In this document: positions 6,885 to 39,218 of the stretch, piece by piece
How the letters are laid out: each line of letters opens with the position of its first letter
How positions within the stretch are numbered: position 1 is the first letter of the stretch
DNA from: Hydrurus foetidus
Taxonomy: Eukaryota
DNA length: 39,797 nucleotides
NCBI GenBank assembly: GCA_900617105.1
Contig: UYFQ01000493.1
Span: 1-39,797, forward strand
Direction of reading: 5' to 3'
Notes under the pieces: model-generated
Seen by the model: only the letters and a program-made list of their open reading frames with translations
What the model was told of the DNA's origin: nothing
Database searches by the model: none
Translations under genes and position numbers: made by a program

Positions 6885-7417
6885 ACTCAGAGGGGCTGAA
6901 TTTGTATCTTCGACGTGTTCGCTACCTGAGTAGTACTTGAAGATGTGAATGACATCGAGAGAACTGAGCTGGCAGCAGCGTCAGGCATCGGGAAACTTGA
7001 CATGAAAATCAGTTTCCGAACTTCGAAAATTAGGAGTAATATCAAAATTCTTAGTGGGATACTTGAGATTGGGCGAACTTTTCAACACTTCGAAAATTAG
7101 GGGTAATATTGGTGGGAAAATTGAAATGGGGAGTACCGCCTGACGGCGGGAAGGTTGTAGTTTTTGAAAAACATATGGGGTGCGTTCGGTAAATTCCAAT
7201 AATAAAAGCTGCAGATTTCACATTCTGAATTTCAACCCAAAATTCGAAATGGGAAATCTGAAAAAGTCTGGGTTCCCTCGTGCGGGAAATTTTACCGAAC
7301 AGTAACGGCATTTCCCGTGAAAATGAAAATGAAAATGAAAATTTCAACTACACTCGCCTTTCAATTATCTCCACAATTATCTTCACAACAATCTCACTGC
7401 CCCATATCTGAATAGAT

Positions 7418-8581
7418 ATGGATGCCAATGGTGAAGTCAATGTCTTGCTCTTAGTAGCTCTTGTACTTCTTGGTGTCTACCAAGTACGCATGCAGCCAAT
7501 TCCACAACATAATTCAGTCCTCACAGGGGATCTCTATTACAGAGAGATAATGGGTACAGTCAATGTCAACCGATTCTTGCAAGTTGTAAGAATGGATAAG
7601 GAGACATTCATCTTGTTGAAAGACGTTCTAACTGGTCCCGGTGAATTACGAAATTCAATGTATATTTGCGCCGGTCAGAAGATAATGATATTGATCCATG
7701 TTCTTCGCGGCCACACGAGCCGAGAGACAGCAGAAAGATTTCAGCACAGTAGCGCGACCATTTCCGAGATAATTCATGAAGTGAGCGACTGCCTCATAAG
7801 TGTTAAACATTTGATATTCGTTCCTGCAAAGGAAGGTGATCCAGTTCCTTCGCAAATAGCGAACTCAGCGAAATTTTCTCCTTTCTTCAACGACTGTATT
7901 GGGGCAATTGATGGGACGCATATTCATGCGGTCATTCCTTTGGCATTGCAGGGTCCATACCGCAATAGAAAAAAATTTATTTCGCAGAACGTACTCGGAG
8001 TTGCAAATTTTGATCTTACTTTCGGATACGCTCTATTTGGATGGGAGGGATCTGCCCACGACAGTAGGGTGTTGGACGACGCTCGAGCGAGGGGATTACC
8101 TTTAATACCTGGAAAGTACTATTTGGGCGATGGTGGATATGGGCTTAGTAAGTATGTTCTCACGCCGTATAGGGGAGTACGTTATCATCTTGTTGAATTC
8201 GACCTTAATGGACATGGTCCCCTGAACAGTAAAGAGCTTTTTAATTTACGTCACTCATCTCTAAGGAATGCGGTAGAAAGACTGTTCGGTGTGAATAAAC
8301 GGAGGTTCCCTGTGCTAGTGAAAATGAGCCCCTATTCATTTGAATTTCAATGCAATATAGTACATTGTTGTTTTTTACTTCATAATTTTGTCCGTATCAA
8401 TCAGTTGTATGAAGATGAATTTTTTGAATTCGATGATAATAATGTACCTGACAATGCAAATGACGACGACGATATTGAGGTTGAAGAAGGTGGTGCAGAA
8501 ATGAATGCTTTGAAAGCATGGCGGAATGGCATCGCTGATGCTATGTGGGCCCAATACCAGATTCACTTAGCTAACTTATGA
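7418..8581 (+). CDS. Harbinger (HARBI1-like, DDE_Tnp_4) transposase
   Basis: Motifs CIGAIDGTHI, GWEGSAHDSRV, YYLGDGGY and FNLRHSSLRNAVERLFG; intact 387-aa ORF. Confidence 0.95.
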   Translation: MDANGEVNVLLLVALVLLGVYQVRMQPIPQHNSVLTGDLYYREIMGTVNVNRFLQVVRMDKETFILLKDVLTGPGELRNSMYICAGQKIMILIHVLRGHTSRETAERFQHSSATISEIIHEVSDCLISVKHLIFVPAKEGDPVPSQIANSAKFSPFFNDCIGAIDGTHIHAVIPLALQGPYRNRKKFISQNVLGVANFDLTFGYALFGWEGSAHDSRVLDDARARGLPLIPGKYYLGDGGYGLSKYVLTPYRGVRYHLVEFDLNGHGPLNSKELFNLRHSSLRNAVERLFGVNKRRFPVLVKMSPYSFEFQCNIVHCCFLLHNFVRINQLYEDEFFEFDDNNVPDNANDDDDIEVEEGGAEMNALKAWRNGIADAMWAQYQIHLANL

Positions 8582-8807
8582 ACTATTTAAATTTGCTAAC
8601 TTCAAATAACTTTTTTTACACAAGTTAATTTTTTACTTAAGACTGAATCAGGAATGACGCAAAAAAAAGAACATACAAAATAGGCGCGAAAGCAATTTGA
8701 AATTGAAGCTGAGAGAGCAAAACATAAATGTTACTGTGAGTTCATGAGATGTACGACTATACATCTCCATTGATTTGAACTACTTATGATCACATGGGGC
8801 AGACAGT

Positions 8808-10092
8808 TTACATCTTGCTTTTATTTTTTTGGATAAAAATATCACGTTGGTGTTCAGTAAATGACAGAAATTGCTGAACAGCAGAGGGGCTATCAGCAAA
8901 CAATGTGATAAATTCCATCGACTCTAAGTCGGTAAGGCCAAAGCTGAATCGGTCCTCGAAAATTTTGATCACCTTATCGTAGGGAGACATCCGGCTATGA
9001 AAGCCCTCCTGGGAGGCGATGATCTGGCGAATGAGCTCTGGTACAACGCCTTCTGACTTTGTCTTGAGCTTCTTCACGAAGGGACGCACAGTGGAGGGCT
9101 GTGGGACAATCGATGAAAATGTCTTGAGTGCAGATTCTGCGGGAGGTGGTGTCTTTGGGGCCTCCATGACGACGTCGATGGGGACGTCTGCATCATGAGA
9201 ACGTCCAACTGTGATGATAGGGACGTCGTCGGAAGTTTTCGGTGCGATAGAGCTCATGGAACGCTTAACTCCAATCGAAGATGTGGTGTACTGACCAGTT
9301 GCTACATCGCCTTAAAAATACAGGAGTGAGATGGTCGGTCGATCGGTCGGCGAGTAAGTCAGTCAGCAGGTCGGTCGGTCGGTCGGTCGGCCAGTAAATC
9401 AGTCAGCAGGTCGGTCGGTCGGTCGGTCGGTCGGTCGGTCGGTCGGTCGGTCGGTCGGTCGGTCGGTCGGTCGGTCGGTCGGTCGGTCGGTCGGTCAGTT
9501 GGTCAATGTAAGTGGTGTCGAATAAAATAGAACAAGAAAAGTGTGAGGCTTTCTGCAGAGTAGAGTCAAGTTTCTTAAGGAGATATTGAAAGAAACACTC
9601 ACGTCCAAAGAGCTCCAGAAGTTCTTCGTAGAATGCCAGCGGAGCATTTGCGAACTGCACGGCTCCGCTGTGACTAGCATAGTAGGTATTCAACACACTT
9701 GGTGCCGCCGTTACCACGCCTCGAGCATCAACGCCAAATCCGCTTTGAGTTGCGTAATGGTGAAATGTTGTCAAGTTACGCTTCAGAGCGGCGACTTGGG
9801 TCTTCAACATAAGCTTCGTGTATGCCAGCCCTACAGAGTTGAAAGTCGAACTGTCATTAGAGTTGCTGAAAAACTGTGAAGCTAGGCGTTCTTGGCTACA
9901 TGAAAATCAGTGAGACTCTCCTGTAGCGGCGTGAAAGTCCTTCACAACGAGCAACCACTTCTTTTTGTCATTAAGAAGGTCGTTGCACCTCCCACCAGAA
10001 TGCATGGTGAGGGTTTCGATGAGAACTCTCTTGTTGACATCTGTCCAGTTCGCAGTTGGTTCTTTCTTTTTTTGGTCGCCTGTAGAAGTCAT
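8808..10092 (-). CDS. Harbinger Myb/SANT-like DNA-binding protein; three exons 10092-9921, 9830-9603, 9310-8808
   Basis: ANWTDVNKRVLIE..KKKW..TGLAYTKLMLK, SGFG and FYEELLELFGRDVATG. Intron 2 is GTGAGT...AAG and keeps frame; the intron 1 donor reads GAGAGT. Confidence 0.75.
9369..9496. repeat. (GGTC)n microsatellite (a short run plus a ~22-copy run) in intron 2 of the Myb-like gene
   Basis: Directly visible; it produces the spurious PTDR repeats in ORF 9403-9810. Confidence 0.97.
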
Positions 10093-20075: not shown

Positions 20076-20245
20076 TTATCAGAATGCAACCAAATCGATC
20101 ACGTTGGGCATTCCACAGTTGTATTCACTAACGCACTATATTGCTTTTCGCTTCAAGCTTCAAGCAAGGGTATACTTCATACTTCAAACTTCATACTGAC
20201 GTTTCGACCAAGAAGTTGTCGGTGCAGCTTATTAATGGAAGAGTG

Positions 20246-21329
20246 TGTTGTGATATCCGGATTAGACTAGGATCTTGTACCCTGTGTGATGTCTGATTGT
20301 TTTCATGCACGGGTGTACGTAGAGTGGTTTACCTATTGTTTCTTAAATTTCAATTAAGAGCACACTAAATTTTTTGGGAATACGGATTTAAGTATCAAAA
20401 TCTGTATTCCGTACTTGTAATATCTGTATTCCGTATACGCCTTATGTTATCGTGTATATAGGCTTCATAGGGCCCATATAAGTCATTAATGACAGTTCGG
20501 GATGAAGCGGCGAGAGCGTTTTAGCAATATTGATGAACATGTTAAGATATTACTTATTACTTAAAGAGAGAATGTTGTTACTATGATGAATCAATCATAA
20601 ATATATCATCGCTAGATGCATTATCATAGAACACTTTTAAGCATTTGACGTCAGATTCGGATGGTTCCTCACAGCAATAACAATTTGAATTTTTTACTCT
20701 ATAGTTGATGAAAATTTTTGATCCTTGTCAATGCCCCATGCCTCATGTTCAGCAGCTTACAGTGCACCAAGGTGTGGCCGTATCTAACCGTTTCCGGTAA
20801 AATATTTTACCGGAAACGAGAAAATTTAGCCGGATCCCGTTAAAGTACCGTATAAGGAAATTCGTAAACGGTTATTTGAATACGGATTTTGAACCATTTC
20901 CGTGTATTTCAGCTAATTAATTCTATTTAAGCACAGGGGTAGCACCCAACATTTAGACCCCCCTGGTTTGAAGCCTTTCCAGTCATCAGAAAAAATAAAA
21001 AAACAGCCTACATTTTTCTTCAGACACAGACGAGTTCAAAAACGTACTCAGAATTAGAGTGTGATAAAAACTCCGGGTCCTAGAATTTTTTGAAATCAGG
21101 TGTGCTTATAAAGGTAAACCACTCTACATTCAGCGATAGCATTGACCGCAACCCTCGCACTCATGTTATGCTACCTAGATGTAATCGACAGCATGTCACT
21201 GTCGTTTAATCCAACTTACCGAATAGAACGTCTTCTTCTCTTTTGAGCAAGCGTTGCTAGCAGTCGGAAGTGCAGGGATTGTTTGGGAACTCGGAAGAAA
21301 TTCCGTGTAAATCGCCCAGATTTCCAACA
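20246..21329 (+). repeat. Copia A 5' LTR, interrupted by an 803-bp MITE
   Basis: 20246-20321 plus 21127-21329 matches 26806-27084. Confidence 0.93.
20322..21124. mobile_element. Non-autonomous TIR element (MITE) with TA TSD, a Tc1/mariner-type target
   Basis: 13-bp TIRs GAGTGGTTTACCT and AGGTAAACCACTC, flanked by a duplicated TA; the empty site is visible in the 3' LTR (GTACGTACATTC); no ORF. Confidence 0.93.
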
Positions 21330-21340
21330 TAAACGACAGT
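21330..21340 (+). promoter_or_regulatory. Copia A PBS position, complementary to its own LTR
   Basis: TAAACGACAGT is the exact reverse complement of LTR 21198-21208 ACTGTCGTTTA; no TGG start. Confidence 0.8.
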
Positions 21341-21384
21341 CATCCTTAGATAGATTAGCTAGAAGTTGCAAAAGTTTTGCAAGG

Positions 21385-24300
21385 ATGAGAGGACGAGGCG
21401 ATGGGAGATTCCAGTCCCGTGGCGGGGGCAGGGGTCGATATGGTAGAGGGCAAGGAGAGCCTCATAAACCCATATCTAAAGGTAGGAAGCCCGAGGTAGG
21501 TGCTTACCTGGATTTGCCGCGAGGACAAGCGGCAGATCCAGAATCTGTGTTGAAATGGCTCGAATGTTTTCGAGTATATATGTACAGTACTTATGAATCA
21601 ACTGTAAAAGAAATAATAGGTATAGACGGGATCCTCTACGACTACGTAGAGCAGGTGGAACCTGAGGACCCGCCTGAAGGAGCAGGACTCGTCGCCATAG
21701 AGAGATGGAAAACTTCACGTAAGAAATATGAAGCTGCATCTGAATTACTTATAAAAGACTGCGCGAAATTGTATGGTGTACTACTAGGCCAAATGTCAGA
21801 GGCGTCGCAGACGCGGGTCAACGAGATGCCCGCGGGAAAGAGAGCTATGGAGGAATGCGATCCTCTAGGTCTGTTGACATGTGTGGTTGCAACACACATG
21901 AGCAACAAAAGGTATGGAGAAACTTATAACATTATTACAGCAGTTAGAAACTTTTATAATAACAAAATGACTCAACACGAAGATCTAGCAGCTTACTATA
22001 GTAGGTGCAGGACTCTGCTATTCGTCAAGAGCGAAGCCTACAGGTTGGCAGACGAAGACGCACCAGAACACACAGATGAGTTCCATGCTGTCTTATTCAT
22101 AACTGCACTGAATTCAAACTATTCAGACTATATTAATACGTTTAAAAATAAGGTTCGGCCATGGCCGCAGACCATGGCTGATGCCAACCAGGACGCGGCC
22201 AACTTCCTCATGGGAAGGCCCGTCCACGGAGGAGCTCCCCCGAACTCGGAGAAGCGAAACGTTTTCGCGGCCAGTCGGGGTGGGAGAGCGGGTTCCGGTG
22301 GGAGAGGCGGCAGAGGCCGCGGAGGCAGTCAGGGAGCTGAGAAGGGAGGGTACGATACCCCCGGCAGCGAGAGTACAGCGAGGGCAGGCACTCCCTATAG
22401 GGATAGGGAGGCCACCCCGCAGAGAGAGAGAGGAGGTGCCGTACAGGAGTACGGTACCCGTTACGGAGCCTGTAACAACTGCGGGGAGGAGGGCCACTAT
22501 GGGTACGAGTGTAAGAAGCCCCCGAGGAAGAACGCACCTGCGCGTCACACTTCCTCGGAAAAGTAAGTCCCGTATATGTTTCTTTACCTGATTCACTAGC
22601 TAAGGATGTAAATGTTCCGTGTGGGGAAACCGGACTGCATGACGTATTTGCAACGTCGACCGGTTACCCTGCGTTTGTGCCATTGTTAGATAAAGCATGC
22701 AGCTTGGAGAATTTTTGTCCACTGAACAGTAAAAATTGTGGGGGTGACCCTGTGATTTTTAGTGCGAATGTATATACACACAGTTCCACATTTACAGATA
22801 GACAAGTGTTGTTAGATACATGTGCAGCAGAGTCAGTATTTTGTAGTGGAGATTTATTTTATAGTATTATGCCGTCCGCTACCCCGATGATTATTAATGG
22901 AGTGAACCCTCAGGGGAACCCTTGATAATCACGGAGTGTGGCGAGACGGACTTCGGAACAGTTTACTACGATAGCAATTGTATAGCGAATATATTATCCT
23001 TCGGTAACATAGTCAGCTCGAGCGAGTCAGTTAGCTATGACAGTGACCAGGATTGTTACAAAGTTAGGATGATTAAGTTAGGACCTGTATATAGATTTGT
23101 CCATGATCAGTCTACGAACATATATCTATGCGACTTAGACAGAAATGTCAGTTACAAGAATGTATCGTTCGATAAATCGATCATGGTCATGACAGTTAAG
23201 GATAAGAAGAAACTGTATACAGCTAGACAAGTTAAGTCAGCAGAGTTAGCTAGAGAGTATCAGAGAAAGTTAGGTTACGCCAGCCCAGGACAGTTAATTA
23301 AATTAATAGGTCAGGGGAAATTAGATAAGAGTGACATAACAGCGCAAGATGTAGTTAGAGCATTAGATATTTTTGGACCAGATTTGGGTTCCCTTAAGGG
23401 GAAAACAACTAGTCACAAAACTGAGTTAGAGGAAGAGATGCCAGTTGTAGATAGGCAGTTCCTGAACCAGGTTATGTACATAGATTTGATGTTTGTGAAC
23501 TCGATACCCTATCTAGTCACAGTTACAAATCCCTTAGAATATGTGATGATATGTAAACTCTCACGTAAAAACAAGTCTTCCTTATGGATGAACTTAGAGA
23601 GCAACATACATCACATTACTAAGTATGGATTTAAGATAACTATGATAAGAATAGACGGAGAGTCGGCAGTTAACACTATAAGTTTTGAGAGTAAGCTAGC
23701 CGCACTAGGTATTATATTAGACAGTACTGGAGCAGGAGAAGCAGTAGCTGTAGTTGAGAGGAAGATCAGAGTGATCAAGGAACGTGTTCGTGCCATCATC
23801 AACACGGTACCTTTTTCACTGAGTGAGCTACTAGAAAGTTGGTTACTTAGATATGTTGTGAACAGATTAAATTTAGTACCAACTAGAAACAGTGTAGCTT
23901 ACGTCAGCCCCAGAGAGAAATTATACGGTAGAAAGATTAACGTAGATAAGGAGTTGAAACACGGTTTCGGTGATTACGTACAAGTACATACCGACTCCGT
24001 GGACAACTCGACTAAACCCAGATCACAGGCAGCAATAGCATTAGTTAGTGCAGGCAACCTAGAAGGTTCATGGTATTATCTGCTGTTAGCTAACTTAAAA
24101 GTAGTAAAGAGGACAAAGGCTACTAGCCTACCATGACAGATGATGTGATCAGTTACCTCGATAAGTTAGCATCTGAGAGGAAATTAAATATGTCAGTGAA
24201 TGTCAAGCAACCTATTTTCGAACAGAGTAATCAAATCCTCGAAGACGATGGAAATGATTACTCCAACGATGAATTTGAGTTGCAGACACCTGACATGATA

Positions 24301-26294
24301 ACACCGTATAGTTACCCTACAGAAGACGAATTTGTGCATCATGAGATAGCAAATAATTTTGACTCATACGATGGCAATTCTGATGTAGCTTACGAATCAG
24401 AGTTCGAACAATTAACAGAATACATACCAAATGATATATACGTTAATGAAGGAGAGGATGTAGTGTATGACGATACACCAACTGACCCCGATGCATTAAT
24501 GAATGATATATTTGGTGTAGACAGTGATGATGAGGTAGATACCCCCACCACAGAAAATAGCAAGTCAGAGGAAATTCTAGATAAACAACCCAGACGTAGT
24601 GCTAGAAACCATCAGCCAGGTAGATGGAACAAGAGATTAGTAGGTTTAAGTATACCTAGCTACAAAGATTCAGTTATGTGTAAGTACATGATGAACATGA
24701 CCGTAACAGAAGGAGTACAGAAATTAGGCGAGATAGCCGTAGATTCCATTAAAAAGAGTTACAACAGATGTGTGATAAGAATGTGTGGGAGGCAGTTCAC
24801 CTCAACAGTCTTAGTTACAATCAGAGGAAAAGTATCATAACCAGCAGTATGTTTTTAAAAGATAAGTATACAGCAGATGGTAAATTTGATAAGCTAAAAT
24901 CTAGACTTGTAGCAGGAGGTCACTTACAAGATAGAAATATATATGATAACGGTTCATCACCAACTGTTAGCACCACTAGCGTATTTATTGTTGCTGCAAT
25001 TGCTGCTAGTGAAAATCGAGCGGTCGCTACGATCGATTTTCCTGGTGCATTCCTCAACAGTGATATGCCACTAGACGGTGACCATGCAGTGCTGATGAGA
25101 CTGAATAAATATTTGACTAACATATTAGTTAGCATTGACAAGTCCTATCAGAAGTATGTAAATGAGAAAGGAACAGTAGTAGTTAAGCTTAAGAAAGCAT
25201 TATATGGATGTGTAGAGTCAGCTAAGTTATGGTACGATAAAATATCATCAGACTTAACACAGTTAGGCTATAAGGTAAATCCATCAGACATATGTGTATT
25301 CAATAGGACTGAGCTAGATTCCACTCAGACTACTTTAGTTATCCATGTTGATGATATGATGATCAGCAGTAGGGATGAGAAGCGTATAGATAGTATAATT
25401 TCAGAGATAGAAAAACTATACCCAGGCTTGACTAAGAGTAGAGGCAGAGTGTTGAATTATATAGGTATGACTTTTAACTTTGAGCAGTTAGGCAGAGTTG
25501 TCATATCCATGGAAGGTTTCATAAAAGACTTGTTAGACGATTGCATAGAGATTGTGGGGGTGTCTAGAACACCTGCCGACGATAATCTATTTAAGATCGA
25601 TCTTAACAGTCCTTTATTGAAAGATAAAGAACGTGAGAGATTCCACTCACTAACAGCTAAGTTGTTATATTTAAGTAAGAGAACCAGACCAGACATACTG
25701 ACATGTATAGCATATCTAACTAAAAGAGTCTTAGAACCTAGAACCGACGACTGGAATAAGTTAGCGCATACTATACGGTATATCAGAGAGACTAGAGCTA
25801 CGCCGCTGACCCTAGAGGTAGATACTCCGGTTAAGGTTATAGCCTATATAGATGCATCATACGCTGTACATGCAGATAAGAAGAGTCACACTGGCTGTAT
25901 TATAACACTAGGTAAGGGAGCAATATATGGTAAGAGTTCCACTCAGAAATTAAATACTACGTCTAGCACAGAGGCAGAACTAGTAGCTATGACTGAAGCA
26001 GGTAATCAGGTTTTATGGACTAGGAATTTCCTTATCCATCAAGAGTATGAGGTAGGTCCAGCTTTAATTTACCAAGATAACCTATCCACAATTCAGTTAG
26101 TTAAGAACGGTAGGTCCAACAGTGAAAGAACTAGACACATAGACATCAAGTTTTTCTTCCTGCATGACCGAATTAAATCAGACCATATTATTGTAACCTA
26201 CAAGAGTACTAAAGAAATGATTGCAGATTTGCTGACCAAGCCACTGCAGGGGAAGCTATTCCAAGAGCTACGTGACCAAGTGCTCAATGTATAA
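21385..26294 (+). pseudogene. Copia A gag-pol, broken into five ORFs by four single-base (-1) shifts
   Basis: RGG-rich Gag with CCHC CNNCGEEGHYGYEC; protease LLDTCA; integrase YIDLMF, RIDGE and VERKIR; RT KSRLVAGG, KALYG and HVDD; RNase H YIDASYA, SSTEAE, QDN and ADLLTK. Confidence 0.9.
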
Positions 26295-26805
26295 AGAAAT
26301 TCAGGGGAGTTATTTATTGATTTTGACTTACCCACTTATAGCGCTTTTTCCAGATAAATTACAAAATAAAAATAAAAATCTGATTTCGCTTTAAATCAAC
26401 ATTTGTTTGATAGGACCGCGAGGGACATCGATGCACCGCTTTTGCGACATCGAATGTCGACGTTTTAGCGGATTTAAGGGCACCAACATCGGTTGGATCG
26501 AACTCGAGACCGGTCACCAGCTGAGGCTTTTTTGACGGTTTAGAAATAGTTTTTCTCGAGTAATACTTACCCGCTAATCCAACCACCCATGTTTTATTTT
26601 ACACCACATCACGACGCAACTTGTCAATATTAAATTATTCCGTGAAAAATATTTTTAAGAAAATTTACTGTTTACCATACCCTAACACTAAGTTCCCTAT
26701 CTGAGTGTTGTGTGAAACATAATGAACAATAACCAATAAGTATACTATATAAGCATATACTAATTAACATATTCACTTATTCAAACAATAACCATCATGG
26801 GGGTG

Positions 26806-27084
26806 TGTTGTGATATCCGGATTAGACTAGGATCTTGTACCCTGTGTGATGTATGATTGTTTTCATGCACGGGTGTACGTACATTCAGCGATAGCATTGA
26901 CCGCAACCCTCGCACTCATGTTATGCTACCTAGATGTAATCGACAGCATGTCACTGTCGTTTAATCCAACTTACCGAATAGAACGTCTTCTTCTCTTTTG
27001 AGCAAGCGTTGCTAGCAGTCGGAAGTGCAGGGATTGTTTGGGAACTCGGAAGAAATTCCGTGTAAATCGCCCAGATTTCCAACA
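26806..27084 (+). repeat. Copia A 3' LTR
   Basis: TG...CA ends; matches the 5' LTR. Confidence 0.95.
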
Positions 27085-27267
27085 GAGGGGGTATTGAGAG
27101 TGGGCGGTAGCTCGCGGACGCCTGCGCAGATTCTCCGCAGAGTGAATGACTGATCCACACCTTCCAGTTCAGGATTGCGGGGTGCAAGCCGGAATGTATG
27201 CGACGTGATTTCAAGTCGATTATTAAGCTGCGTTGGTACATAGGCATAGGGTCCTATATAGGCTTTT

Positions 27268-27540
27268 TGTCAGTGAACTACGTACACTGCTTATTAATCT
27301 CACCACATCCAACAGAATCTCATCTAGCCGTTAACAACCGCCCTCCTGCCAACTGAAAATGACGACCAAAGGCCGACTATGACGACGACCTCAACTGCTC
27401 ATGACGATCTTTCTTTCCTTTCGTTCACTACACATTCGATCCATTCACTCCACTACATTGATGTATACTCACAATCTTTCGCTGTAATACTATAAGCAAT
27501 TCTGATTGTACCGTATAGTTTTCGGACCACAGACCTGACA
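27268..27540 (+). repeat. Copia B 5' LTR
   Basis: Direct repeat of 32586-32858. Confidence 0.96.
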
Positions 27541-27554
27541 ATTGCTTATAGTAT
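27541..27554 (+). promoter_or_regulatory. Copia B PBS position, complementary to its own LTR
   Basis: ATTGCTTATAGTAT is the exact reverse complement of LTR 27487-27500 ATACTATAAGCAAT; no TGG start. Confidence 0.85.
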
Positions 27555-33368: not shown

Positions 33369-33989
33369 TCATATGTCAATTGAATTTCATGCACTGTTCG
33401 AACGACACCTCTATTTTCATGTGACATGAATAAAATACTTACGTACACTTTCCGTTTTTTTTCATGTACCGTACTGACCGCGAACGAACATACCATAACC
33501 CTATAGGGTAACCTATATAGGGAAACGGTGAAAAGCCCTATGCATAGGCAATAGGAAAACGAAAAAAACCCTATGTACCAACGCAATTATTAAGTGACGC
33601 CGGGAACTTGTGCACTTGCGGATTGGGTTCTCTGGATCGAAGTTGGATTGGAACCGGTGCGAGCCGCTCCTTTTCAGATCCAAAGTACAAAAGGCTTGTA
33701 TACGAAATTCCTTGCGAAATTTTGAGAGGTAGAGTACAGGACAGAACACAGAGCAGATGTGGATGTAGATGTAGAACACAATACAACATCTGTTTTCAGT
33801 TTTGTGTGCGCACGCATACTATACGGTTCTGTACGCATCTCACTGGGTGCTTGTCGCAAACCTTTCAGTTTGTTGCAACTTGTGGTGCAAGTCTTCGGTG
33901 TATATACTTAGTGTATTTAGATTGAATATCATACAGTTTTAACACGTTTGCTTACTGAATCTTTCAAGTTAAAGAGATTTTTTCAAACC

Positions 33990-35720
33990 ATGAGTCTTAT
34001 TCCTCTTGTTCACCCTGGAATTGGCGGCACAGTTAGCGCTATCGCAGCTCTCACGAGTCTAGCGAATGATCGGCCACCGACAAATGTGATCAATCATGGT
34101 CTACCTGAATACGCTATTCTTTCTGCGGCAGCAACGGCGTCATTGAACATCATCTCCAGCTTCAGTCATGATGCGTATCAAGGAGAGGGTACACTGCGTC
34201 TCAGCTTCAACGCATCACTGACGCCATGGCAGGAAATGGATAAGAAGTCAACCTTCCTGCTTCCTGCTACTGCACTACCAGAGGGTACAAACTTGACGTT
34301 GGGATTTCTTGACAATTCTATGGTCCAATTGTGGCAGTTGCGCGGCAAGCCAACTAGCACAACGACGTACGCGATGCTTGTGGGGCTAGCTGGGCACGGA
34401 CATCAGATGCATGGAGCTCTCGCGATAGGCAGCAGGATTAGCGTTTCCACACCACCATACTTTCTGTTGGCAATGGAAGATCTAGAGAACGTTGCACTGC
34501 AGCACGCTGCCGCTTGGTCTGCGTCAGAAAGGAAGAGGCTGGAGGAAGCACGCGATGAGAGCATTGAGAGCGAGCACGTGGAGAAGCGGATCCGACTCGG
34601 TGTGCAGGACGACTTGGGAGTGCACAGCCAAGGTGAGAAGGTGCACGTGAAGGTGTTGATAGATTTAGAGGGTCGACCACATACGACGAGGGTTAAGACA
34701 GATTTAGCAGAGAGGGAGAAGAACTTGGGTGTGGTGTTCCGAGTGTGCGATGAGAGGAGATGGCAATTCATCATGGGAACTGAGTGTGTACTCCAGGTTG
34801 AGGAATATGCTAGGGTGATTAACGAACAGTCTACGCTACAGATTAGCGAACGAGACCCCGGATTCAAATGCTGCGGTCTGCTCGATAGGGTCTATGGTCT
34901 GAGCTTCTCAGTCGACATTCCGTTGCTCAAGAAACTGCTTACCGGTGATTTCGGTGGTCCCCTTGGGGATGCTTTGGACCTGCAAAAATTTGCTGGGAGG
35001 ACGGTCAAGATTCCAGTCGAGCTCACACCTTGCACACAGCAGAACAGAGCCCTAGTGGTGGCGATCAAGAACATGGAATTGGTATTCGTGATCTTCTACG
35101 GGTCTGCGTTTCACAAGTCGACCAACCGTTTTGTCGACCTGTTGGAGGGACTCCATCGGCCCCTGGAACTCGCACCGTCCGGATTCCTCCTGTACTCATT
35201 GGAGGTAGCGTTGTCAAAATTCTTTAGGACATTGCGCATGGCTACGACCACGTCTAATAAGACTCTCCGAGATGTCAGCAGTCCAACTGCATGCGCTGCT
35301 TATTTGAGCGCGGTGCTCAAGGACTTTGTGAGTGCACTCAACACACAAGAAAAACTGAATGAAGCCATGGCGAGGTACCAGCTGCTCGACTATCGAAGTC
35401 GTCTTGGTAATCAAACCAAGGGAGCCGCTGGAGCTTCCAAGACAGAGGCGAAGGCCAAAACGGCACCCTCTCCCGCAAGCATTGCAGTGACGAAGGCAGT
35501 GTGCGGGGAACATTTTGCGGGGCAACTGAAGGCACAAGATCCAAAAACGTCACGTACATTCTCCTGTACGTACGGCGACGGTTGCCGATTCGCTCACGAT
35601 GACATCAGCAGATGGACTGAAGACAAGAAGTCGGCGACTGCCGCTACCCTCGCGTACAGGTTCCGCCAGCCTTCATTGGATGCTCTCGGTAAGGTCAAAA
35701 ACGGCAAGACCCGTGTATGA
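33990..35720 (+). CDS. ORF1, Gag-like, with a C-terminal CCCH-like finger
   Basis: First ATG at 33990; lies before RT; C-x20-C-x5-C-x3-H (CGEHF...CTYGDGCRFAH). Confidence 0.75.
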   Translation: MSLIPLVHPGIGGTVSAIAALTSLANDRPPTNVINHGLPEYAILSAAATASLNIISSFSHDAYQGEGTLRLSFNASLTPWQEMDKKSTFLLPATALPEGTNLTLGFLDNSMVQLWQLRGKPTSTTTYAMLVGLAGHGHQMHGALAIGSRISVSTPPYFLLAMEDLENVALQHAAAWSASERKRLEEARDESIESEHVEKRIRLGVQDDLGVHSQGEKVHVKVLIDLEGRPHTTRVKTDLAEREKNLGVVFRVCDERRWQFIMGTECVLQVEEYARVINEQSTLQISERDPGFKCCGLLDRVYGLSFSVDIPLLKKLLTGDFGGPLGDALDLQKFAGRTVKIPVELTPCTQQNRALVVAIKNMELVFVIFYGSAFHKSTNRFVDLLEGLHRPLELAPSGFLLYSLEVALSKFFRTLRMATTTSNKTLRDVSSPTACAAYLSAVLKDFVSALNTQEKLNEAMARYQLLDYRSRLGNQTKGAAGASKTEAKAKTAPSPASIAVTKAVCGEHFAGQLKAQDPKTSRTFSCTYGDGCRFAHDDISRWTEDKKSATAATLAYRFRQPSLDALGKVKNGKTRV

Positions 35721-37823
35721 CTACCTGAGGAGAGTAAAGAGAAACTCAACAGGGTCAGAGAGGTGCTACCCATCATCCCGCTAGTGCTGATAGATGAGAT
35801 CAGTAGCATGGCGGATTCATATTTTTCTCGCTCAAGTCGGCTACCTCGCGCATATCTCGAAGCAGTGGTCAGCGAGGCAATCGCAGCATCGGATGAGCAG
35901 TATGGAATCGATGCAGCGGTAGCATGGGCAGGTGGCTACACCTTCCCGAGAGCCATGTTGTTGAGCGACATGAAGTGTTTTCAGGCTGCCCAACTGGACC
36001 TAGTGGTGATGGTACGCCGGAGATTGAAAATCTTATCCGGAGACAGGCTTAGTAGCGCGAGAGTGGAGCGCCTAAGGTCAGACAATCCCGAGAGGGACCT
36101 CCTTCATGACCTAGCGATTGGCATGCGAGTACCCCTGCCGACTGACTTTGTGCCGAACGGTACCCAACCATCAGCAGCCTTGAGGAGTACGTACCTGAAG
36201 GTAGACACCGCAGTGAATAAGATGCTTGGCAGTATTGTGGAACAGAGGTTGGCATTCCTATTACCAAAGGATTTAGCCGTACAATGCATACCCAACCTGC
36301 ATCTCGGAGCTGCACATTGGAACCCTAGTGGGCGGCCAATAGGAGACCTCACCTACGTTACCGGGACTCCTCTGAACAGTGAAGAAACCACCACAGCTGC
36401 AGCAGAGCGATATGGTGTGATCAAGCACCCGACTATCGCAGAGATAGTGCGCATGATGATGTCGTTTTGGGAGAAGGCTGTGGAGTCGAACGCAGCAGTG
36501 CAGTGGAGTCATCTACGTCTTTGGAAGATGGACCTGAAAGGAGCGTACACTCTTCTTTCGTTTCGTCCTGAGGATGCAGGCTTATTCGGTATGGAGATCA
36601 CCGGCGGCCTAGTCTACTTACAGATAGCTGGTATATTTGGATGGGCATGCACGCCGGCTGCCTTCCAAACTATCACTCGAGCCATCAAATGGGAGCTCTC
36701 GCACAGTCTGAGAAGCTCCATTGAGATGTACGTTGATGACATCATCGGCGTATGCTTCGAAGAAGATCTCGCGGAAGATCTCGTACGTGCCAGGGGAGTA
36801 TGTACGGACCTACTCGGATCCTCGGCAGTGGCAGATGATAAGACAGAGTGGGGAAGGCGATTGGATATCATTGGCTTCACGGTCGATCTAGACCTAATGA
36901 GTGTCACTATCTCGCGAAAGAATTTTCTTAACACCCTATACGGCTTCATGTCGATCGACCTGGAAGCATCTATTTCACTGCGTATGGTTCAAAGGCTAGC
37001 ATCGTGGGGGAGTAGATATGGGTCAATATGTCGAGCCATGCGGCCATTTAGTGCGGCCCTCCATAGAATGGCCGCAGGGAGAACCACACGCATGTCAACT
37101 TTTCTCGTGAACAGTGAGGCGAAGTTAGCTATCCGGCTGTGGCGCACCATGTTGGTGCTTGTACGTTTCGATGAGGCGAGGTACAGCAGGCCTATGCAGT
37201 CGTTTGTCAAAACGATGCCGGAGTACATCATCGAGTTTGATGCCTCCCTATCCGGAGTGGGTATTCTGTGGTATAAAAGAGTCAATGGCGCTGAGTTGTG
37301 TCTGGGTGGCAGCGCAGTGAGTCTCCGCGGTTTAAGTTTCGAGGGCGACTCCTCCTATCAGAATCTCTGCGAATTCATTGGCGCGATGCTTGGGCTGATC
37401 GGCTTAAGCAAACTCGGTATCAGAGGAGTAGACGTAACGATGAGGGGAGACAGCATTTCTGCCCTCACGTGGGTGAGTACGGAGAGATATAGAGGCGTGA
37501 ATGTCTCGAACGCCTCCATGGTGTTTACTATGCTCTGTATTAACCAAGAGCTAATCGTCAAGGAGTCTGTACACATACCTGGCAGTGATAATGGCAGATG
37601 TGACGCACTCTCTCGTCTGTGGGAGTCGGGGAAGACTATGAAAGAAGTGATGACGAGCATCGGACTTGAGAATAGCAGAGAGGTGGACCTCCAAGGTTGT
37701 CAGCATGTTCAAAACCTCCTCGCAAGTTGCGATCCGTCCATTAAATTTAATGCAGAAGCGGATTTCCTCGGTTTCTGGGGGGGCGTCAGGGACGCTTTGG
37801 AGGGGGTGGTCAACGGAGTGTAG
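35721..37823 (+). CDS. ORF2, DIRS-type reverse transcriptase plus RNase H, in frame with ORF1
   Basis: RT LWKMDLKGAY, FGWACTP, YVDD and IIGF; RNase H FDASLSGVG, QNLCE, RGDS and HIPGSDNGRCDALSR. Confidence 0.93.
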   Translation, partial: LPEESKEKLNRVREVLPIIPLVLIDEISSMADSYFSRSSRLPRAYLEAVVSEAIAASDEQYGIDAAVAWAGGYTFPRAMLLSDMKCFQAAQLDLVVMVRRRLKILSGDRLSSARVERLRSDNPERDLLHDLAIGMRVPLPTDFVPNGTQPSAALRSTYLKVDTAVNKMLGSIVEQRLAFLLPKDLAVQCIPNLHLGAAHWNPSGRPIGDLTYVTGTPLNSEETTTAAAERYGVIKHPTIAEIVRMMMSFWEKAVESNAAVQWSHLRLWKMDLKGAYTLLSFRPEDAGLFGMEITGGLVYLQIAGIFGWACTPAAFQTITRAIKWELSHSLRSSIEMYVDDIIGVCFEEDLAEDLVRARGVCTDLLGSSAVADDKTEWGRRLDIIGFTVDLDLMSVTISRKNFLNTLYGFMSIDLEASISLRMVQRLASWGSRYGSICRAMRPFSAALHRMAAGRTTRMSTFLVNSEAKLAIRLWRTMLVLVRFDEARYSRPMQSFVKTMPEYIIEFDASLSGVGILWYKRVNGAELCLGGSAVSLRGLSFEGDSSYQNLCEFIGAMLGLIGLSKLGIRGVDVTMRGDSISALTWVSTERYRGVNVSNASMVFTMLCINQELIVKESVHIPGSDNGRCDALSRLWESGKTMKEVMTSIGLENSREVDLQGCQHVQNLLASCDPSIKFNAEADFLGFWGGVRDALEGVVNGV

Positions 37824-37925
37824 GGTAGGGGGATAGGGAGGGATGGGATGAAGGGGGATAGAAAGGGATGGGATGAGGGGTGGAAGGGGATGGGAGAGGG
37901 TGAAAGAAGTAGGGATGAAGGCATA
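37822..37925 (+). repeat. Purine/G-run tract with G-quadruplex potential
   Basis: About ten runs of three or more G separated by short spacers, directly after the RT stop codon. Confidence 0.8.
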
Positions 37926-37980
37926 GGAGACGCTGTAATTGATGTAGCCTCATTACCACTCGATGTGGGTGGGGAACAAG

Positions 37981-38020
37981 TACTAACAGTTACATTATCC
38001 CTACACTCTGTTTGAAACAG
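37981..38020 (+). promoter_or_regulatory. Branch point and 3' splice site preceding the YR exon
   Basis: TACTAAC at 37981-37987, a pyrimidine-rich stretch, then CAG| ending at 38020. Confidence 0.75.
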
Positions 38021-39218
38021 GTCACTCAGGACTTACGGCCGAGGGTAAGGCTGTACTAGGGGACTTCCTGAGGAAGTCGGTCACAACGGGAACAGCGAAA
38101 ACATACGATGGTCAGTGGCATGGGTGGTGCGAATTCATCGACAACATAGAATGGGGGAAGGACCCATACATGAGAGAGGAGCGTGAGGATGATAAGGCGG
38201 CGCTAGTGGCTTTGTACCTACAGAGTCGGTACGATAAGGGAGCCCGTGGCAAGAGTGCGACATCAGTTACAGCTGGTCTGCGGCACTCCTTCATGACAGC
38301 ACTTCTGCCATGTCAATTCCTGGACTCACCTATTATTGTAGCAGCTCGGACGGCATGCAGACTGAGCACGACAGAGCTACGGGAGAAAAGGAACGAGGGT
38401 GCGAGTACCAGTGTGAAGCTCCTCTATGTGAGAGCATTCTGATCAGGATGAGGCACCGCTTATGGGTGAGTTGTGGGTGGGACCGGGGGGGGATAGATCA
38501 AAAGATGATCTACCTGGCAGCGATGTGGGCGTACAATATGGACGCACGGGTGAGTGAGTACACGGCACCGGAGAGAGGGGGCGAGGACCACTGTGTACGA
38601 GTGGGCGACCTAGATTTCGAGATGGTGTGTGGGGAGAGAAAGAGAGGGGGGCAGATGCTGCCTGGGTCAGAGTCAGTAGTCGCCTGCTGGGTGAAGGCGT
38701 CATCCCAGAAGACGGGCTCATTTATGAAAATGAAACTGATAGGGAGAAGGACCCCGGAAGAGGGTCAGTTCCTGGATGACCTCATAAGCTGGGTGACTCA
38801 CTCAGGGGTGACTGAAGCTGACAGACTCTTTTCTCGGTACACTGAGCTTAAATGCGGAAGAAGGTCGAAGAAAGAGCTCACTGCGAGGATGATAAGGGAC
38901 CAGATAAAGGAGACGTGCGCACTGGAGAACCTACCAGCTGAGCATTTCTCAAGTCACTCATTGCGCAAGGCCGCTACGACTCACATGCGGGCGCTTGGAG
39001 CATCGGAGGAGGATATGAGAGATAGAGGAGGGTATGCATCCGGATCGAGGGTGATGACATACACCTATGACTACTCGTCCGCGGGCCATGGGCCACTCTC
39101 CTCGAATGCACTAAACGGAGGTGCCCGCCCTGATGTTCAAGACATCCTGCGGTTTATACCACAAACAAGGAACACGGACAGGGCTCACCTTGGACTGTTG
39201 GGTGAAGGTGATCGCTAA
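38021..39218 (+). CDS. ORF3, tyrosine recombinase (no start codon of its own; one -1 shift at ~38420)
   Basis: N-terminal domain SVTTGTAKTYDGQWHGWCEF; catalytic motifs ARVSEY, SQKT, SHSLRK and RGGY..MTYTY. Confidence 0.88.

Follow-up and report, generated by a model that had tools for sequence, protein, structure and literature searches.

A Ty1/copia lineage that likely primes reverse transcription with the 5' end of its own transcript

INTRODUCTION

How does an LTR retrotransposon start reverse transcription when the primer-binding site (PBS) beside its 5' LTR is complementary to that LTR itself? This question is raised by a Ty1/copia element, here called Copia A, on a Hydrurus foetidus contig (UYFQ01000493.1; the window, 39,797 nucleotides, is the whole stretch analyzed). 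In the literature found, self-priming is demonstrated for Tf1, a Gypsy element, and predicted for one plant Copia lineage. In Tf1, pairing involves the first 11 bases, and RNase H cleaves the RNA between base 11 and base 12 (PMC7175516); Tj1 is a self-priming relative (PMC4600332). The plant Ty1/copia lineage TAR (Houba, Osr-1) is predicted to self-prime in 89% of 203 elements (PMC6317226, supplement 3), judged by an LTR complement of at least 10 nt located 0 to 5 bp past the LTR, and the same source extends the prediction to Tcn1. A sequence-only reading of the window had proposed an 11-nt self-complementary PBS in Copia A, a similar one in a neighboring element (Copia B), and a self-priming mechanism shared by the divergent Copia families of this host. 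Here, we ask how far each part of that proposal holds.

MATERIALS AND METHODS

Relatives of Copia A were obtained from eukaryotic contigs mis-binned into prokaryote metagenome-assembled genomes (MAGs). The set comprised 14 loci from a reverse transcriptase (RT) scan, 2 from a gag scan, and 100 contigs from the same assemblies, chosen mainly for long open reading frames (ORFs) or gag matches. The contig pool consisted of 75 + 22 + 49 RVT_2 matches plus gag and integrase searches, part of whose matches were taken. Two of these MAGs are heavily contaminated by eukaryotic retrotransposons: on single-ORF-like contigs, G001 has 67 Copia RT matches and G011 has 49. The metagenome gag-alignment scan gave two loci among 96 matches, L016 (47-nt leader) and L069 (88-nt leader), both too short to score; among 21 pattern matches on viral contigs there were no relatives.

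In total, 20 + 18 leaders and 20 3' tails were scored for the longest exact complement starting 0 to 2 nt past any CA, compared with dinucleotide shuffles. L069, L006, L009, and L012, which belong to the 18-row RT clade described below, were left out of scoring. LTR ends of most relatives were inferred from the CA beside the arm; for L003, a near-copy (L004) has a second LTR, which gave the end independently. RT trees were built with FastTree on 94 rows and with IQ-TREE on 38 of those rows.

RESULTS

Anatomy of Copia A. Copia A has TG...CA LTRs, target-site copies matching at 4 of 5 positions, and a polypurine tract, as is typical of Ty1/copia elements (Table 1). Its RT was assigned to RVT_2 by domain search, with integrase homology upstream. 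The pol frame switches near 22915, 24133, and 24755, each time beside a short homopolymer run, and these switches may be read errors. The LTR is 279 bp long (TGTTG...CAACA), and its two copies differ at 1 of 278 compared positions. This amends the earlier picture of the LTRs: an 803-bp MITE-like element sits inside the 5' copy, and a 205-bp repeat is only the LTR part downstream of the insertion. Since contigs from all four public runs compared join 20319 directly to 21125, other copies of Copia A do not carry the MITE-like element, which entered the U3 of the 5' LTR after Copia A had integrated. It ends 74 bp upstream of the predicted transcription start, and two of the four runs show depth over parts of it.

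Copia A was present with at least half of its words in 15 of 24 public runs among those listed, namely freshwater, biofilm, sediment, and glacier metagenomes plus one coded organism. No tRNA or Rfam matches were found in a scan of the window, and a PDB sequence search with the Copia A RT profile gave no match. The junction GGGTG|TG between polypurine tract and LTR is conserved, being common to Copia A, L003, L006, L015, L069, L106, and L124.

Table 1. Positions of the features of Copia A and Copia B within the window
Feature	Positions	Strand	Remarks
Left target-site copy GAGTG	20241..20245	+	right copy GAGGG, 27085-27089; 4/5 match
Copia A, whole element	20246..27084	+	Ty1/copia LTR retrotransposon
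Copia A 5' LTR	20246..21329	+	279 bp plus insertion
MITE-like DNA transposon, 803 bp, in U3	20322..21124	.	13-bp exact terminal inverted repeats, TA duplication
CGACAG	21186..21191	+	hairpin with primer motif possible in RNA starting upstream of CGACAG
TC-A, initiator-like	21196..21198	+	predicted transcription start 21198; YCA enrichment in relatives
Predicted self-primer, first 11 nt of R	21198..21208	+	complement of PBS
Primer-binding site, no TGG	21330..21340	+	exact complement of 21198-21208
gag ORF, CCHC zinc knuckle	21385..22566	+	zf-CCHC domain match
pol, protease-integrase-RT-RNase H (Copia order)	22722..26294	+	four reading-frame pieces
Polypurine tract GGGGGTG	26799..26805	+	adjoins 3' LTR
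Copia A 3' LTR, uninterrupted	26806..27084	+	279 bp; motif copy 26953-26963
Copia B LTR motif	27487..27500	+	complement of own PBS; no YCA in front
Copia B primer-binding site	27541..27554	+	14-nt perfect match to own LTR

The PBS of Copia A is an exact complement of its own LTR. As originally described, the 11-nt PBS (TAAACGACAGT) is the exact reverse complement of an LTR motif that recurs in the 3' LTR, and it adjoins the 5' LTR, beginning at the first base past the terminal CAACA. Among dinucleotide-shuffled LTRs, 14 of 20,000 gave a match of at least 11 nt with PBS offsets of 0 to 4; in a stricter test, which allowed any CA as LTR end, 2 of 2,000 shuffles were as good. Folding predicted R-PBS pairing with a mean probability of 0.92 to 0.97 for RNAs extending no further than 21390, regardless of where they start. 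For RNAs extending to 21450, the mean probability was 0.87 to 0.91 with starts at 21194 to 21198, 0.15 to 0.34 with starts at 21180 to 21190, and 0.71 to 0.84 with starts further upstream. None of the 36 substitution rows among those listed for public contigs of four runs fell into the motif or the PBS. One public contig differs from Copia A at 28 letters over 21196 to 21400, and one loose contig end has a G at position 21340, a change that would reduce the duplex to 10 pairs.

An initiator-like signature at the start of the motif. The motif begins at the A of an initiator-like TC-A, as had been noted. This region of Copia A reads TCACTGT, and the initiator consensus is YCAYTYY (PMC3599244). 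Of the 7 core relatives, 5 have a YCA with its A at position 0 or -1 of the arm (P = 1.5e-5 versus local background, with a position window picked post hoc, after the data had been seen). Counted at the arm start, the YCA is present in 8 of 12 elements, or 8 of 15 after adding L103, L073, and L076; it is absent there from these three, from L011, and from Copia B. As a sequence-based rather than a mapped assignment, the signature supports a transcription start at 21198. In L007 (274-288) and L106 (1453-1464), a one-base bulge lets the pairing reach back to the YCA, and short perfect arms may thus understate primer length.

The upstream CGACAG does pair with the motif, as the sequence-only reading had suggested, in a 6-bp hairpin; when the bases upstream were shuffled, 4 of 100 trials gave one as strong. 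The idea that a U3 hairpin generally masks the 3' copy of the motif was considered and rejected: only Copia A (4/100) and L007 (3/100) stood out, and in the other 10 elements 12 to 76 of 100 shuffles were as strong.

The pairing is concentrated in one RT clade. The RT phylogeny, proposed earlier as a way to see whether the trait marks a clade, placed Copia A in an 18-row clade (support 88/90, IQ-TREE), and the trait is concentrated there. All nine in-clade relatives with a leader and a gag start have a perfect match of 9 to 16 nt at offset 0 after CA, seven of them at a level reached by at most 5% of shuffles (Table 2). In L011, 266 nt separate the arm from gag; L104, the sister of L011, is without a match (6 nt). 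The four clade members scored by a 3' tail, with no gag start, gave one positive (L076, 12 nt, 0/200), one weak match (L073, 9 nt, 35/200), and two negatives (L001 and L104). A match frequency no higher than chance, which the earlier reading had named as evidence against itself, is contradicted by this survey.

Table 2. Longest perfect match between PBS and own LTR in in-clade relatives
Relative	Match	Shuffles as good	Remarks
L003	16 nt	0/300	
L005	15 nt	0/300	
L008	15 nt	0/300	
L056	14 nt	0/300	
L015	14 nt	1/300	
L103	11 nt	3/200	
L007	10 nt	4/300	
L011	10 nt	19/300	weak, not significant alone
L106	9 nt	28/300	weak, not significant alone

Outside the clade, 1 of 23 RT-bearing leaders was positive (L124, 2/300, on a long branch), and 63/300 was the best value among the remaining 22. 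This control is underpowered because some leaders are shorter than 300 nt or have no proven LTR end. Two of 13 out-of-clade tails fell at or below 5%, L136 (4/200, low complexity) and L128 (9/200). Of five leaders without an RT row, four were negative and one, L107, was positive (15 nt, offset 2, 0/300); its gag resembles the clade profile.

The trait was found in contigs of several unrelated assemblies, and Copia families with and without it coexist in assembly G001. These two observations, together with the negative result for the Gypsy element of the window (see below), rule out a host-wide trait. Judged from the contigs at hand, the distribution marks the predicted pairing as a trait of an element lineage and not of one host.

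Pairing persists while the letters change. Among the eight core elements, the first letters of the PBS are shared at a mean of only 3.0 of 9 positions. Each PBS matches its own LTR over 9 to 16 nt, versus a maximum of 8 nt between elements (56 cross pairs, mean 4.2), and none of 12 elements has a TGG within 6 nt past the LTR end. Thus, pairing persists with different letters across the clade. A constant PBS would be expected under a tRNA primer; since unrelated PBSs are seen, the partner is self-encoded. Of the mechanism shared across the Copia families of this host that was inferred originally, self-priming is therefore well supported by covariation, and its host-wide extent is not.

Copia B and other elements of the window. 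Copia B shows the same signature, with the length of its perfect match corrected to 14 nt, which no shuffle equaled (0/20,000; 0/2,000 in the stricter test). It had been taken as independent support. It is an independent example in sequence, with an RT 23% identical to that of Copia A over 355 residues; its placement is unstable, and an independent origin is one possibility beside a single one. FastTree put Copia B loosely with the Copia A group, IQ-TREE left it unresolved outside, and the AU test did not reject a single clade of both (p-AU 0.27). L101, beside Copia B in the FastTree tree, was negative. The two elements lie 183 bp apart (27085-27267) in the same orientation, and Copia B is flanked by an exact target duplication, CTTTT, but a clear purine tract is missing upstream of its 3' LTR.

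At the LTR end of the Gypsy element (6884-1021, minus strand; LTRs of ∼370 bp), a match of 5 nt was seen with the boundary set two bases off, and in the stricter test 46 of 500 shuffles were as good. Its PBS position, without TGG and without a long LTR complement, is occupied by a 12-nt palindrome (AAAAGTACTTTT) followed by a hairpin. The window also contains a DIRS-like element (33921-39218) with gag-like and RT-like ORFs plus a tyrosine recombinase (PF00589), and a Harbinger/PIF-type transposase (DDE_Tnp_4; 7412-9906) with a second ORF on the opposite strand, split by a GGTC tandem run.

DISCUSSION

We estimate at about 80% the probability that Copia A primes its own reverse transcription without a tRNA, by analogy with Tf1. 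RNA polymerase II would start at the motif or one base before it (A 21198 in TC-A), and the first ∼11 nt would fold back on the PBS, closing an R-U5 loop of 121 nt. Copia A RNase H, if it acts as in Tf1, would then cut past the paired stretch and leave a 3'-OH, from which RT would extend across U5 and R to produce minus-strand strong-stop DNA; the GGGGGTG tract would prime the plus strand as usual. With a self-encoded primer, the PBS and the start of R can drift together, so that each family would come to have its own pair of 9 to 16 nt.

Covariation shows that the pairing is selected and leaves its function to be argued. The R-PBS duplex might instead have a structural role in packaging, dimerization, translation control, or presentation of the RNA to RT, with the primer coming from elsewhere; fungal GalEa Copia elements do have, where the PBS would lie, a conserved hairpin for which no primer is known (PMC5445492). 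We consider this unlikely for Copia A: the right arm begins at the first base past the LTR in all nine anchored relatives, exactly where the 3' end of a primer must lie, the left arm often begins at an initiator-like YCA, and no other primer site (TGG) is present.

Complementarity to a tRNA had been named as a finding that would speak against self-priming, and a possible case of it was seen. The Copia A PBS fits an anticodon-loop register of tRNA-Asp: its complement reads as Y32-U33-GUC-R37 with an A31-U39 pair, and anticodon-loop priming by tRNA-Asp has been described for a fungal Copia (PMC10886601). Priming by the 5' half of host tRNA-Asp(GUC), with the LTR copy of the motif being incidental, is nevertheless very improbable. 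Any anticodon register fits only two of the eight core elements, the second one without the 31-39 pair, and the other six fit none; the PBSs are unrelated between families, and the exact LTR copy (2/2,000 shuffles) would be left unexplained. Known cytosolic tRNA-Asp loops are moreover CUGUCAC or CUGUCGC, not CUGUCGU.

The presence of the motif in both LTRs would also allow the copy near the RNA 3' end, in R of the 3' LTR, to serve as primer by a free 3' end instead of a cleaved 5' fragment. This we regard as scarcely credible: the RNA would have to end, without a poly(A) tail, precisely at 26963, the R copy required for strand transfer would be occupied, and the CGACAG hairpin partly hides the Copia A motif in U3-containing RNA. 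A chance inverted repeat, for which the shortness of 11 nt might be cited, can be dismissed given the stricter shuffle test (2/2,000) and the recurrence with unrelated letters in the clade, which refutes it.

Self-priming by Copia A would resemble several known systems. In Tf1 and Tf2 of Schizosaccharomyces pombe, in Tj1, and in the Tf1/sushi and Tcn1 chromoviruses, the PBS beside the 5' LTR likewise complements the element's own LTR and not a tRNA. The Tf1 group, however, belongs to Ty3/gypsy, whereas Copia A has the Copia gene order and an RVT_2-type RT and so falls outside Tf1/sushi; the Tf1 mechanism is demonstrated, that of Copia A predicted. The equality of its 11 nt with the Tf1 self-primer, pointed out earlier, is real but incidental, since the arms of relatives vary by family between 9 and 16 nt, a span that also excludes a fixed arm length of 11 nt. 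Nor is predicted self-priming unprecedented in Copia, given the prediction already made for TAR (PMC6317226). TAR is a plant lineage; the Copia A integrase, in contrast, groups with a protein of the diatom Attheya, and the element turns up in metagenomes of freshwater, biofilm, and sediment. Because the Attheya integrase (P0248) nests within the 35-row integrase group of Copia A (SH-aLRT 92, quick tree), we call Copia A diatom-type. GalEa elements of fungi, with their Conserved Hairpin Site, similarly have no tRNA PBS, but the whole of that hairpin is located past the LTR, its sequence is conserved, and no complement to it was found in the LTR (PMC5445492), whereas the partner in Copia A lies in the LTR and is free to change in sequence. 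Skipper elements are described as having no PBS complement (PMC5006619). A match of TAR-type PBSs to U2 snRNA was also considered and dropped, as none of the papers listed supported it.

CoDi elements (Copia from diatoms; Maumus et al. 2009) are diatom-linked like Copia A. The words "tRNA" and "primer binding" are absent from the main text of the CoDi paper (PMC2806351), which gives no priming mode; PBSs may be listed in its supplements. In a literature search covering mainly freely accessible journals, no report of self-priming in a diatom or stramenopile Copia was found. What we describe is a real feature and likely a known mechanism, in a Copia lineage for which no published report of it was found. 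Beyond this, we lean slightly toward a broader view, in which a deep and large diatom-type Copia clade, possibly including Copia B-like families, would have lost tRNA priming independently of Tf1/sushi and TAR and would use a capped, drifting self-primer of 9 to 16 nt set by the initiator.

If self-priming holds, a Copia RNase H would perform the RNA-duplex cut so far shown for Tf1 only. The joint changes of PBS and LTR between families of the Copia A clade amount to natural compensatory-mutation evidence, and both a repeated origin of tRNA-independent priming and RNA-duplex cutting by Copia RNase H can be tested now. Programs that accept an LTR element only when its PBS matches a tRNA would overlook or mislabel this abundant Copia group.

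Finally, the end of gag deserves mention. At 22558 to 22568, a GTAAGT overlaps the gag stop and is followed by several in-frame acceptors; a gag-pol intron from this donor is possible, with 5 of 10 nearby acceptors in frame, and L016 is without the donor. In 72 of 93 gag homologues with a terminal knuckle, the last residue is Lys or Asn, which may point to a conserved signal for recoding where gag stops.
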